Positions 36,986-39,032 of a stretch of DNA of 39,032 nucleotides are shown here, one piece after another (positions within the stretch are counted from its first letter, which is position 1; every line of letters starts with the position of its first letter). The position numbers and the translations under genes are program-made. This DNA is from a virus (Duplodnaviria > Heunggongvirae > Uroviricota > Caudoviricetes), in IMG/VR virus record IMGVR_UViG_649989948_000008, positions 1 through 39,032 of that record, one strand, 5' to 3'. Under the pieces are notes generated by a model. The model was not told where the DNA came from and made no database searches. It worked only from the letters and a program-made list of their open reading frames with translations.

Positions 36986-37738
36986 TTAATCTTTTAGATA
37001 TAAACCAACTGGGGTTCTTGTTTTGCGGGAGATGATAAGTACGATAAATTTCTCAACGTTAACTTGCACCTTATTTGGAAACCAAGAGCTTAATTCTGGA
37101 TCAAGTAACAATCCTCTGTTCCACGGCAAAAAGCCGGTTTCTTTTCCCATCCCATATTCGCCTAACACATCCTCGAACGTCTCAGTTTTTGCGTTGTAAA
37201 TTCTTACATCACCTGTTCGCATTAATGGACCGGCCCAGATTTTTGCGCCAGGAATGGTCTGATTGTAATCACAGACAAGATGTTCGTACCAATGAAGGAG
37301 GAAGCGATACGTGAGGTTGCACAGTCCCCTTTGCCTTATTGCTCTTTCTGTCTCAACACCTGCAATCTGATAGCAGTCAATCTCTACCCCATCCTCGATG
37401 AATGTGTATTCACGCAATGCAATTCTGCCTGCTATCGTGTTTCTGCTCTGATCGAGCATGTCGGAACGCAGAATTGCTTGAATAATGTCCGAATCAGACA
37501 TTCCATCTTCGCCTCTGTCCAGAATGAAGTCCATCAGTTCACCCTGATCTCGTGCTCCAACTTTCTCCATCAGGATATACAGACAGATATCATCATCAGG
37601 CTCGATAATGGTTATTTCGGATATTTTGAAAAGCGATGCTTCGTTGATGAGGTAGCCAAAACGTGAAACGCGAGTTTCCCCACGGTGAGGAAACTCATAA
37701 AGATTTTTAGAGTATGTGCGTTCTAGTGTAGGTGCCAT
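36986..37738 (-). CDS. hypothetical protein (250 aa)
   Basis: ATG start confirmed by hand; no motif recognised. Confidence 0.5.
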   Translation of the reverse strand: MAPTLERTYSKNLYEFPHRGETRVSRFGYLINEASLFKISEITIIEPDDDICLYILMEKVGARDQGELMDFILDRGEDGMSDSDIIQAILRSDMLDQSRNTIAGRIALREYTFIEDGVEIDCYQIAGVETERAIRQRGLCNLTYRFLLHWYEHLVCDYNQTIPGAKIWAGPLMRTGDVRIYNAKTETFEDVLGEYGMGKETGFLPWNRGLLLDPELSSWFPNKVQVNVEKFIVLIISRKTRTPVGLYLKD

Positions 37739-38106
37739 CTTAGAGCAGTACCATCAGCAGTTGTATTGCTGACAATGCTACCATGAGTATTAAGAAAGCG
37801 GCGAATTGCACTCTCAATAATTTCAGAGAATTGGTCACTAAACCGTGCTAATTCAGGGTATTGTTTTGCTGGCTTCACAATGAAACGAACACGATCGTTC
37901 AGGAAAATCGCTTCAGCCAACGGTTTTACACTGGCACCAGCATTCTCAACATCGTCTTTGAAAGTTACGATGAAGCGAGTGTCTTTTGGCGCAGTCGCAT
38001 CGTTGTTAAGTTTACGCACCTCAAGTTTGCGCTTATTCAGCACATGAGTTGCGATAACACTCGTGCAATCGCGAATTGTTTGTATAGAACGTTTTTCGTT
38101 CAGCAT
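37723..38106 (-). CDS. hypothetical protein (127 aa)
   Basis: ATG start; 16-nt overlap with the downstream gene. Confidence 0.45.
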   Translation of the reverse strand: MLNEKRSIQTIRDCTSVIATHVLNKRKLEVRKLNNDATAPKDTRFIVTFKDDVENAGASVKPLAEAIFLNDRVRFIVKPAKQYPELARFSDQFSEIIESAIRRFLNTHGSIVSNTTADGTALRWHLH

Positions 38107-38283: not shown

Positions 38284-38514
38284 TTATGGTACTTTTCTGC
38301 CCCATCCACACAATCGCTCCCCTATCATATTGTGAAAAAGCACCTCTCTTTCAGTCTCTTCTGTCATGAGATCATCACGGCTGATGTATAGCGGTGTAGC
38401 CGCATCGCAGAAAAGCACACCAGCGGGTTGAGGCTTAATCACGCAACCACTTATTGTGCAACTCATGATGAACAGTAGAAGCATCCTTGCTCCGTAACTC
38501 ATCAAGTGTTTCAT
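38284..38514 (-). CDS. small lipoprotein, possible o-spanin (Rz1-like)
   Basis: Lipobox ISGC after a hydrophobic leader; gene begins inside the 3' end of the upstream membrane protein gene in another frame. Confidence 0.35.
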   Translation of the reverse strand: MKHLMSYGARMLLLFIMSCTISGCVIKPQPAGVLFCDAATPLYISRDDLMTEETEREVLFHNMIGERLCGWGRKVP

Positions 38515-38686
38515 TTTTGACGTCCAATGTGCTTTGAAGTCGTTTCCTGTCTTCCTGTTTTGCCTTCTCTTCTATTGCTCGTCGCGCCGCATTTCCGCCC
38601 ATCGTGTAAGCGCCGACCAGAACGAAAAGAACGGCAGCCAGCGTAATCAAAGCAACTTTTAGCTTTGTCATCAGGCTGCCTAGCAT
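38435..38686 (-). CDS. single-pass membrane protein with charged helical tail, possible i-spanin (Rz-like) or holin-type protein
   Basis: N-terminal TM (KLKVALITLAAVLFVLVGAY) followed by EEKAKQEDRKRLQSTLDVKNETLDELR; overlaps the lipoprotein gene by 80 bp. Confidence 0.35.
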   Translation of the reverse strand: MLGSLMTKLKVALITLAAVLFVLVGAYTMGGNAARRAIEEKAKQEDRKRLQSTLDVKNETLDELRSKDASTVHHELHNKWLRD

Positions 38687-38687
38687 A

Positions 38688-39032
38688 TTAGACCATCCCT
38701 TTCTGGTGTTTTCTTACCTGCGACCAGGCAATGAATCCTGCCACAACAATAGTGGCAATACCGAAGATGATGCGTACTGTATCCCCGCTAGAGATATGAC
38801 CTTGTGCTTTATCCATAGCAGCGGAAACCTGCGGCATAACATCGGCCAGCTGCGCCAGACCAATACCTGCTGTAACAGTTGCGCCTGCAGTTTCTTTAGT
38901 TACAGGAACAGCCTTCACGGTTTTCACCGGCTTAACAACGCCAGCTCGACGCAGACCTTCCTCAATAACTTCTGCCGCATACCAGGTGTTCAGCGTTTTT
39001 AGCGGGCCTCGACCATTCTCGTGGCGAATGAT
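38688..39032 (-). CDS. lysis-associated protein with C-terminal transmembrane helix, partial (5' end beyond window)
   Basis: The reading frame stays open to the window edge upstream of the GTG that the track uses as start; C-terminal hydrophobic helix IIFGIATIVVAGFIAW; directly upstream of the spanin-like pair. Confidence 0.3.
   Translation of the reverse strand: MIRHENGRGPLKTLNTWYAAEVIEEGLRRAGVVKPVKTVKAVPVTKETAGATVTAGIGLAQLADVMPQVSAAMDKAQGHISSGDTVRIIFGIATIVVAGFIAWSQVRKHQKGMV

Follow-up and report, generated by a model that had tools for sequence, protein, structure and literature searches.

The window (the whole 39,032-nt stretch of DNA that was analysed) is 100% identical to E. coli plasmid NZ_CP146657.1 and represents the end of an SSU5-like E. 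coli phage-plasmid at which its lysis genes lie. The original prediction described a partial open reading frame (ORF), an 83-aa gene and a 76-aa gene at the right edge of the window, and all three are present where it placed them, on the minus strand. The features of the locus, with gene names that follow the assignments discussed below, are as follows:

38284..38514, minus strand: predicted o-spanin gene, 76 aa (ORF and phrog_1275 match)
38435..38514, minus strand: dual-coding overlap of 80 nt (i-spanin codons 58–83 in frame 0, o-spanin codons 1–27 in frame +1)
38435..38686, minus strand: predicted i-spanin gene, 83 aa (ORF and phrog_1026 match)
38530..38550, minus strand: approximate recombination junction in the i-spanin gene (sliding-window identity)
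38688..39032, minus strand: 3′ third of the endolysin gene, last 114 codons and stop, cut by the window edge
38688–38690, minus strand: endolysin stop codon TAA

The ATG of the i-spanin gene lies 1 nt past the endolysin TAA, and the o-spanin gene starts 172 nt 3′ of the i-spanin start, which places it in the +1 frame. The 76-aa lipoprotein gene had been described as starting inside the 3′ end of the previous gene in another frame, and the frame, the 80-nt overlap and the lipoboxes all agree with that description. Extension of the sequence to the right had been proposed, and was carried out by means of the identical plasmid. There, the remainder of the 230-aa endolysin gene continues past the window edge, and the gene of a 107-aa holin candidate lies upstream of it; SSU5, Cyrano and PhiR41_1 show the same synteny of holin candidate and endolysin. 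Genes without a link to lysis at these upstream positions would have spoken against the call, and were seen neither here nor in the close relatives. The two small genes overlap and directly follow an endolysin gene, which is the adjacency expected of a two-component spanin (Kongari et al. 2018). On the downstream side, the two ORFs after the pair had no match in PADLOC or Pfam, and the 177-nt intergenic region that follows the o-spanin gene showed no promoter, terminator or RNA fold beyond shuffled expectation. An Rfam scan of the window returned only tRNAs, located elsewhere.

The endolysin fragment matched phrog_873 ('endolysin') at 3e-23 and begins within an Enc34-type (PHA02564) catalytic domain, the end of which is followed by a linker, then an amphipathic helix, and finally a C-terminal transmembrane (TM) helix at fragment residues ~85–107 (about 38712–38780). 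Its only strongly hydrophobic 19-aa windows lie at residues ~83–107 (KD up to 2.07), in agreement with the C-terminal TM helix first attributed to the partial ORF; by hydropathy the distal helix is clear and the proximal helix is only moderately hydrophobic. The full-length endolysin of the identical lineage has 230 aa. A 230-aa endolysin of a close relative, 98% identical to that of the window lineage, matched the Enc34 endolysin structure PDB 7Q47 (E = 6.8e-54), and the match covers IIRHENG...EGLRRAG, the segment that opens the window fragment. By these similarities the endolysin is of the Enc34 type (PHA02564), with a predicted lysozyme-fold catalytic domain and C-terminal two-helix membrane domain, an architecture that has been described (PMC8943055, PMC7143992). 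The holin candidate falls in phrog_5093, for which PHROG gives no function, and has a single C-terminal TM helix, unlike the Chi/Enc34 holin. Pfam and NCBIfam scans of all four cassette proteins gave nothing above threshold. A specific tie between the spanin family and the TM-anchored Enc34-type endolysin was rejected, as about 25 loci carry the same o-spanin family without that endolysin. Two rearranged derivatives (L029 and L031) were at first sight candidates for an exchange of catalytic domains on a shared TM tail, a reading that was also rejected; these are deletion fusions of a scaffold-like ORF with the endolysin tail.

The 83-aa protein has one N-terminal hydrophobic segment (residues ~9–29, KD 2.38, about 38600–38662), as expected of the single-pass membrane protein first reported, and the 56 residues after it are highly charged and free of proline and cysteine. 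It matched phrog_1026 ('Rz-like spanin') at E = 5.4e-22 over profile positions 2–84 of 85. The window i-spanin is 78% identical to that of SSU5, which is listed in a published spanin census as an 83-aa overlapped i-spanin with 72% predicted helix and no predicted coiled coil (PMC6139136). Its C-terminal motif L76..W80.R82.D is conserved in the family, and L76, W80 and R82 are invariant in an alignment with the i-spanins of Siskin, Shy and Pseudomonas. The flanks of the TM segment carry charges of +2 (N-flank) and +1 (C-flank) by simple counting, which does not settle whether the protein has the N-in, C-out orientation of i-spanins, and the Siskin record annotates its I-spanin as 'N out C in'.

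The 76-aa protein begins with a signal-peptide-like segment with a K/R-containing N-region and carries tandem lipoboxes, FIMS-C19 (codon 38458–38460) and TISG-C24 (codon 38443–38445), at which the +2 residue is V or T and not Asp. All 36 distinct o-spanins of related loci have a lipobox, and none (0/36) has Asp at +2. The protein thus has the sequence marks of an o-spanin, namely a predicted signal peptide, a lipobox cysteine and no inner-membrane retention signal. It matched phrog_1275 ('Rz-like spanin') at E = 8.8e-23 over profile positions 4–74 of 81. Homologues were found in 226 phage records, including the curated O-spanins of Siskin and Shy, and tblastn against Siskin, iEPS5 and Enc34 gave 41–42% identity (E~1e-10). 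Residues C36, D48 and C69 are invariant in the alignment of 72 o-spanins, and the window protein has every invariant residue and most of the near-invariant ones. Homology of the mature domain places it in the phage Chi o-spanin family (phrog_1275).

The conserved core of the o-spanin runs from C36 to W71 (about 38302–38409). The AlphaFold2 model has a mean pLDDT of 81 and block means of 83–98 over residues 31–70, and its best structural neighbours in BFVD are annotated O-spanins; a Foldseek search against the PDB gave no match. The mature protein contains 4 Pro in 53 residues and is not proline-rich. The model suggests a small, confidently predicted folded core between two invariant cysteines, Cys36 and Cys69, which may form a disulfide. 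The periplasmic part of the i-spanin has no cysteine and the mature o-spanin has two invariant ones (C36 and C69). At least one periplasmic cysteine that could serve disulfide-linked oligomers occurs in 507 of the 528 spanin systems of the census, in which none in the i-spanin with two in the periplasmic o-spanin is the commonest combination (PMC6139136).

Several independent contigs encode an o-spanin with 100% identity to that of the window. A homologue search with the 76-aa sequence alone returned 9 protein clusters and a search with the family alignment 271, the small first number arising because gene callers rarely call the o-spanin gene. Its start is annotated differently in each of four public phage records, and the ATG of M1 is the sole start codon common to all four SSU5-like lineages. 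M11 has a GGAG Shine-Dalgarno sequence but was rejected as the start, since the SSU5 lineage lacks it; the Cyrano lineage in turn lacks M5.

The overlapped spanin pair is real, but it has been catalogued before for the SSU5 phage group. The SSU5 pair (SSU5_028, i-spanin; SSU5_029, o-spanin; 83/76 aa) was listed as an overlapped two-component spanin by Kongari et al. (2018), with the o-spanin in the phage Chi family and the i-spanin as a singleton (PMC6139136). The window pair belongs to the same phage-plasmid group and shares with SSU5 the location after a holin candidate and a 230-aa endolysin, the 83-aa i-spanin, the tandem lipoboxes, the identical cysteine pattern and an overlap of 80 nt when counted from the common M1 start (68 nt from M5, the start used in the census and RefSeq). 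Other SSU5-like o-spanins are about 64–69% identical to that of the window, whose C-terminal tail is 4 residues shorter than that of SSU5 (76 vs 80 aa from the equivalent start). The o-spanins of Chi-like phages (Chi, iEPS5, Enc34 ORF40/41, Siskin gp39/gp40) are of the same family, with 41–49% identity and the same core, C..PIY.S..D..T..T..QI..HN..GE..CGW, and their genes also overlap (74 nt) after an Enc34-type endolysin. The Chi-like i-spanins resemble the window protein in size, build and the C-terminal L..W.R..D motif, with marginal pairwise similarity (27% identity in local BLASTP, 16% in the multiple alignment, E = 3e-4). The Chi-like phages differ in having another holin type and o-spanins with a single legal lipobox. 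In Siskin, the Texas A&M phage group annotated the same four genes, the I-spanin having 84 aa and the O-spanin, whose gene overlaps, 67 aa; the same four-gene layout was reported for Enc34 (PMC8943055). Full-length PHROG spanin matches, SSU5 homologues in the census (PMC6139136) and the lysis neighbours uphold the call of a spanin-like pair in a lysis cassette. The original prediction was tentative because both proteins are shorter than typical spanins; this gives no reason for doubt, as members of the family normally have such lengths (83/76 aa in SSU5, 84/67 in Siskin).

The layout had also been called the classic one for Rz/Rz1. The overlap is real, but in lambda the whole of Rz1 lies within Rz, and overlapped genes are the mark of the P2 LysB/LysC class (PMC6139136; PMC8943055), which the window genes resemble in architecture. 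By architecture the window pair would be a functional analogue of the lambda pair, with a putative type II inner-membrane protein and a predicted outer-membrane lipoprotein, and in both cases the two genes close the lysis cassette and use common DNA in different frames. They show no sequence kinship, as no Pfam family reached threshold even with the E-value limit raised to 1. Lambda Rz has 153 aa, two coiled-coil helices and two Cys, and the unstructured Rz1 contains a single Cys and has Pro at 10 of 40 residues (PMC6139136), whereas the window pair combines an 83-aa i-spanin without Cys and an o-spanin with 4 Pro in 53 residues, a predicted folded helical core and two Cys. The window pair is analogous to lambda Rz/Rz1 and not homologous. 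T4 PseT.3/PseT.2 shares the distribution of cysteines (none in the i-spanin, two in the o-spanin, both essential in T4) and a partly helical o-spanin, and differs in separated genes and longer proteins (117 and 83 aa). Pfam and PHROG searches detected no sequence similarity of the window pair to T4 PseT.3/PseT.2 or P2 LysB/LysC.

The i-spanin of the window is a mosaic, in which the first ~50 codons are near-identical to the Cyrano type and the C-terminal third, together with the o-spanin, is of another type. The junction with the Cyrano-type lineage lies near i-spanin codons 46–52. Identity to that lineage is 95–100% upstream of the junction (98–100% as far as the start of the i-spanin gene) and only 62–77% downstream of it, and the partitioned differences number 7–13 in 171 nt, then 19–24 in 80 and 35–40 in 132. 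The block shared with the Cyrano lineage spans the whole endolysin and holin genes, so the junction is simply the edge of a conserved phage module. The i-spanin C-terminus and the o-spanin are inherited as a single block.

Between SSU5-like lineages, pN/pS was 0.17–0.50 in the i-spanin frame and 0.05–0.31 in the o-spanin frame, compared with about 1.0–3.6 in the two control frames, and purifying selection acts on both small genes in their own frames. Within the overlap, most lineage pairs gave 0.34–0.48 in the i frame, 0.44–0.86 in the o frame and 1.06–1.80 in the third frame; in the closest pair (L025/L029, 7 differences), constraint there was seen in the o frame only. An overlap of 74–128 nt occurs in 34 of 35 distinct related loci, and essentially all 35 retain the overlapped layout, a lipobox and a residue other than Asp at +2. 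These data bear directly on the reading of the 76-aa ORF as a chance open frame over a real 83-aa gene, for which one could cite the absence of a RefSeq/PGAP call in NZ_CP146657.1, the four start positions in public records and the 9 clusters found with the single sequence. The o-spanin calls are missing because gene callers penalise an 80-nt same-strand overlap, and selection and conservation rule the chance frame out. The constraint in its own frame, the 226 phage records and the 271 protein clusters in which homologues with a lipobox and the three invariant residues occur, the M1 ATG common to the four lineages and the confidently predicted fold leave this reading a negligible probability.

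We consider it very unlikely that the 83-aa protein is a small regulator of the tethered endolysin, of the holin, antiholin or pinholin type, and the 76-aa protein an unrelated accessory lipoprotein such as a Cor/Bor/Llp-like exclusion protein or moron product. The 83-aa protein is small and single-pass and directly follows a TM-anchored endolysin that is released in an unexplained manner (PMC8943055); the upstream holin is merely a candidate, given phrog_5093 and a single C-terminal TM helix unlike the Chi/Enc34 holin; the flank charges of the i-spanin leave its topology unsettled; a PHROG holin family gives a weak hit (phrog_1350, E = 0.14); and SSU5-like elements carry the exclusion lipoprotein gene cor nearby. 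However, the strong PHROG hits, at ~1e-22, are to spanin families, the overlapped pair is kept across very different phages, and the i-spanin C-terminus is co-inherited with the o-spanin. Moreover, Chi-like phages, which are strictly lytic and would not be expected to carry exclusion morons, have members of the lipoprotein family in their lysis cassettes. The spanin family is also found with endolysins of other types, which shows that it does not serve the TM-anchored endolysin alone as an accessory. It is likewise highly improbable that the spanin genes, though intact, are relics in an element that has degenerated or formed a cointegrate and has lost the ability to lyse cells. The source plasmid has 198 kb, vs ~103–115 kb for typical SSU5-like phage-plasmids, and the fusion ORFs of the derivatives L029 and L031 lack the endolysin catalytic domain. 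Against this stand the four of four cassette genes that are intact in the identical lineage, the o-spanin kept without change across independent contigs, and PhiR41_1, a 95%-identical element that was deposited as a phage of E. coli K-12 MG1655.

The pair is best explained as the last genes of a four-gene lysis cassette, encoding the two-component spanin of an SSU5-like phage-plasmid, and we put the probability of this reading at about 0.88. The cassette would read, in order, holin candidate, membrane-anchored Enc34-type endolysin, i-spanin and o-spanin. The i-spanin would be the inner-membrane subunit, anchored by its N-terminal TM helix, with a charged helix of ~56 residues projecting into the periplasm. 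The o-spanin would be exported and then lipid-modified at the lipobox cysteine, and, as Asp is absent from +2, its expected destination is the outer membrane. If the pair works like lambda Rz/Rz1 and T4 PseT.3/PseT.2, the two proteins would bind through their C-terminal parts and bridge both membranes through the mesh of the cell wall. Once the endolysin has destroyed the wall, the spanins would be free to oligomerise and to fuse the inner and outer membranes, which would remove the final barrier to phage release. The combined periplasmic length of the window pair is ~109 residues, and the census range is 62–300 (PMC6139136). We infer the spanin function, since no experiment on the SSU5/Chi-type spanin family was found in the literature, where the studies of M4Lys and Enc34 tested the endolysin and holin candidate only.

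The SSU5 i-spanin has no predicted coiled coil and the o-spanin is not Pro-rich, so the lambda mechanism may not transfer in detail. A mechanism of another kind is suggested by the short length, the i-spanin without predicted coiled coil and the predicted compact helical mini-domain of the o-spanin, with its putative bracketing disulfide, in place of an unstructured Pro-rich tail. It is possible, if unlikely, that this short spanin family disrupts the outer membrane in a manner unlike the lambda coiled-coil/proline-rich model; for example, the folded o-spanin domain could dock onto the L..W.R..D motif of the i-spanin, with disulfide isomerisation as the trigger. In a weaker variant, the tandem lipoboxes may be two alternative lipidation sites.

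The SSU5/Chi-type family would offer a compact model for how very short spanins bridge and fuse two membranes. SSU5-like phage-plasmids are of clinical interest because they spread resistance genes in Enterobacteriaceae. The practical value of the present result lies in the annotation of the lysis cassette, and it carries little weight as a discovery. In the RefSeq record NZ_CP146657.1, the o-spanin gene is uncalled and the other three cassette genes are labelled 'hypothetical'. Among 5,426 complete E. coli genomes, 214 contain matches to the region, which in the records listed is likewise labelled just 'hypothetical' or 'membrane protein'.

The following features, all on the minus strand, were found at the right-hand edge of the window, where the original prediction had placed an overlapped spanin-like pair:

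39032..38688, minus strand, 3′ part of the endolysin gene (last 114 codons), cut by the window edge and ending in a TAA stop
38686..38435, minus strand, predicted i-spanin gene (83 aa), beginning 1 nt past the endolysin TAA
38514..38284, minus strand, predicted o-spanin gene (76 aa), in the +1 frame because its start lies 172 nt after the i-spanin ATG

Residues ~83-107, at the end of the endolysin fragment, are clearly hydrophobic (mean Kyte-Doolittle up to 2.07), matching the C-terminal transmembrane (TM) helix originally described for the partial ORF. The i-spanin was confirmed as an 83-aa single-pass protein, with one hydrophobic N-terminal segment (~9-29) and a remainder of 56 residues that is rich in K, R, D and E and contains no Pro or Cys. 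At the N-terminus of the o-spanin, an N-region with K/R is followed by hydrophobic residues and then by the lipobox I-S-G-C24, with another lipobox (I-M-S-C19) five residues before. The two spanin genes overlap by 80 nt (38435-38514), and the description of a 76-aa lipoprotein gene beginning within the 3′ end of its neighbour in another frame was thus correct.

Whole-length matches to PHROG 'Rz-like spanin' families were obtained for the i-spanin (phrog_1026, 5.4e-22) and the o-spanin (phrog_1275, 8.8e-23), and neither protein gave a match in Pfam. The 2018 spanin census lists SSU5 as having an overlapped two-component spanin, with the i-spanin as a singleton family and the o-spanin in the 'Chi' family together with those of Chi, Enc34, iEPS5, FSL_SP phages and Redjac (PMC6139136). 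The census tables give the SSU5 i-spanin 83 aa, of which 50 are periplasmic, with 72% helix and no predicted coiled coil, and the SSU5 o-spanin 76 aa with 57 mature residues (PMC6139136). Homologues of the o-spanin occur in 226 phage records, Chi-like siphoviruses among them; the specialist-curated phage Siskin has the same layout of holin, TM-anchored endolysin, 84-aa I-spanin and overlapped 67-aa O-spanin. On sequence similarity, the window pair is assigned to the SSU5/Chi spanin families. A spanin pair is already known for the SSU5-like phage group, and the original interpretation is supported by the PHROG matches, the cassette context and the census listing. The small size that had been considered a concern is real but normal for this family and inside the census limits (combined periplasmic length 62 to 300 residues; PMC6139136).

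Selection and conservation were analysed using 80 related IMG/VR loci together with annotated phage and plasmid records, and pN/pS was computed between four SSU5-like lineages in each gene's own frame and in control frames. The i-spanin-only part gave 0.17-0.50 in its own frame versus 1.0-1.8 in control frames, and the o-spanin-only part 0.05-0.31 versus 1.0-3.6. Within the overlap, the five more divergent pairs gave 0.34-0.48 in the i-spanin frame, 0.44-0.86 in the o-spanin frame and 1.06-1.80 in the third frame. The closest pair has just 7 differences there, and in it the o-spanin frame alone seems constrained. Both genes are under purifying selection. A lipobox was present in all 36 distinct o-spanins from related loci, none with Asp at +2, and the upstream TM-protein gene overlaps the lipoprotein gene by 74-128 nt in 34 of 35 distinct loci. 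The single 'separated' locus, which is Chi-like, was rejected as an artefact of the start-codon heuristic, since the curated Siskin record has that arrangement overlapped. These data exclude the 76-aa frame being a chance ORF, a view implicit in RefSeq, where the o-spanin gene is uncalled. The start of the o-spanin differs among four phage records (39, 48, 52 and 76 aa); M1 is the sole start codon common to all four SSU5-like lineages, because the Cyrano lineage lacks M5 and the SSU5 lineage lacks M11, and the original 76-aa call is thus the best supported.

It is unlikely that the genes encode a holin-like regulator and an unrelated lipoprotein, because highly dissimilar phages, strictly lytic ones included, inherit the pair as an overlapped unit, and the same spanin family is also found beside other endolysin types. 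It is possible, though improbable, that the genes are relics in a cointegrate: a 2.1-kb stretch including the region is 100% identical to NZ_CP146657.1, a plasmid of E. coli MS 145-7 whose 198-kb size leaves room for this reading, whereas the intactness of all four cassette genes speaks against it. No experiment on the SSU5/Chi-type spanin family was found in the literature, and the spanin function of the window pair is consequently predicted on good grounds rather than demonstrated. What novelty remains concerns the mechanism of a short spanin family of predicted function, and annotation hygiene.

By analogy with lambda and T4, the subunits would bind via their C-terminal regions, linking the inner and outer membranes across the peptidoglycan mesh; once the endolysin clears the mesh, the complexes would oligomerise and the membranes fuse (PMC6139136). 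In the i-spanin, a single N-terminal TM segment is followed by a long tail, charged and helix-prone, whose end carries a motif kept in Chi-like, Lokivirus and Pseudomonas relatives (L76, W80 and R82 invariant). The o-spanin carries a lipoprotein signal and lacks a residue for inner-membrane retention. Across an alignment of 72 sequences, C36, D48 and C69 show no variation, and G23, P41, I42, Y43, T54, L59, H61, G65 and W71 almost none. AlphaFold2 with this alignment predicted two helices, a short one at 35-38 and another at 52-69, with a loop between them, a mean pLDDT of 81 and block means of 83-98 over residues 31-70. No solved structure resembled this model, and the best similar predicted viral structures were annotated O-spanins. 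An i-spanin without Cys paired with an o-spanin with two is the commonest census pattern and is shared with T4, in which neither o-spanin cysteine is dispensable and isomerisation of an intramolecular disulfide into intermolecular links has been proposed (PMC6139136).

The pair is predicted to work like lambda Rz/Rz1, yet lies outside those sequence families. The original comparison to the classic Rz/Rz1 overlap holds for DNA shared in two frames but not for layout: in lambda the Rz1 gene is embedded, whereas the overlapped arrangement is that of P2 LysB/LysC. Moreover, the i-spanin has roughly half the length of Rz and none of its cysteines, and the o-spanin has 4 Pro in 53 residues and is predicted to be folded, compared with 10 in 40 for Rz1. 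Through the overlap, the constrained i-spanin C-terminal motif lies opposite the loosely constrained o-spanin signal peptide, as is usual where spanin genes share DNA. Tandem lipoboxes, FIMS-C19 and TISG-C24, lie at o-spanin codons 19-24 (38443-38460). C19 is the position to which the lipobox Cys of most family members aligns, and their near-invariant Gly four residues on aligns with G23; only the second lipobox is legal in Chi-like phages, and both are in SSU5-like elements. One IMG/VR variant (L010) has TINGC, weakening the second.

Related phages share this region at 95% identity (Escherichia phage PhiR41_1), about 90% (phage Cyrano) and 80% (Salmonella phage SSU5), and it was matched in 214 of 5,426 complete E. 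coli genomes, every time on plasmids. Records of 156 kb carry two 99.3%-identical matches; a size of ~103-115 kb is typical of SSU5-like phage-plasmids, and the larger sizes, including that of NZ_CP146657.1, suggest cointegrates or enlarged derivatives. A recombination junction was located inside the i-spanin gene (~38530-38550). Identity to the Cyrano lineage is 95-100% across the holin candidate, the endolysin (98-100% in its tail) and the first ~45-50 codons of the i-spanin, then falls to 62-77% over the i-spanin C-terminus and o-spanin and to random level past the o-spanin stop. This drop indicates that the C-terminal third of the i-spanin and the o-spanin travel together with the variable cargo region, apparently as one exchangeable block.

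Rightward extension, called for by the original prediction, was made using NZ_CP146657.1 and an identical IMG/VR lineage, and revealed the remainder of the endolysin (230 aa in full), a holin candidate of 107 aa, a cor exclusion lipoprotein gene and tail-fibre genes. The genes immediately upstream, endolysin and holin candidate, do not refute the lysis reading. SSU5 has that gene order, and Cyrano and PhiR41_1 have that cassette. A close relative's complete endolysin matched the Enc34 endolysin catalytic-domain crystal structure 7Q47 (E=6.8e-54), and the alignment covers IIRHENG...EGLRRAG, the segment opening the window's fragment. This endolysin class, including Enc34 and M4Lys of phage BSPM4, combines a PHA02564 catalytic domain with a C-terminal two-helix membrane domain (PMC8943055, PMC7143992). 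The SSU5-type 'holin' (L008 1298-1621), upstream of the endolysin just beyond the window, belongs to phrog_5093 (function unknown) and consists of a long soluble N-terminal part with one TM helix at the C-terminus. The Chi/Siskin holin carries its TM helix at the N-terminus and showed no similarity to this protein, which is a holin candidate by position only.

In the RefSeq/PGAP annotation of NZ_CP146657.1, the o-spanin gene (window 38284-38514; 7385-7615 in L087) is uncalled. The i-spanin, endolysin and holin candidate are each a 'hypothetical protein', a label explained by Pfam and NCBIfam having models for none of the four proteins of the cassette. In two rearranged loci (L029 1559-2326 and L031), a portal gene precedes a scaffold-like ORF with coiled coil that continues in frame into the C-terminal TM tail of the endolysin (83-86% identical). 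[quoted passage not shown] Between the lysis cassette and parA lie ORFs of 127 and 250 aa (36986-38106, minus strand), which had no match in Pfam or PADLOC. The same slot holds a KacT acetyltransferase toxin-antitoxin pair in Cyrano and two hypothetical genes in SSU5 (DNA 57-73% identical), and this variable slot may be a hotspot of accessory or defence cargo among SSU5-like elements. Elsewhere in the window, four clustered tRNA genes (26443-26993, minus strand) were found, namely, Ser-TGA, Thr-TGT, Tyr-GTA and Asn-GTT, three of which were confirmed by Rfam.
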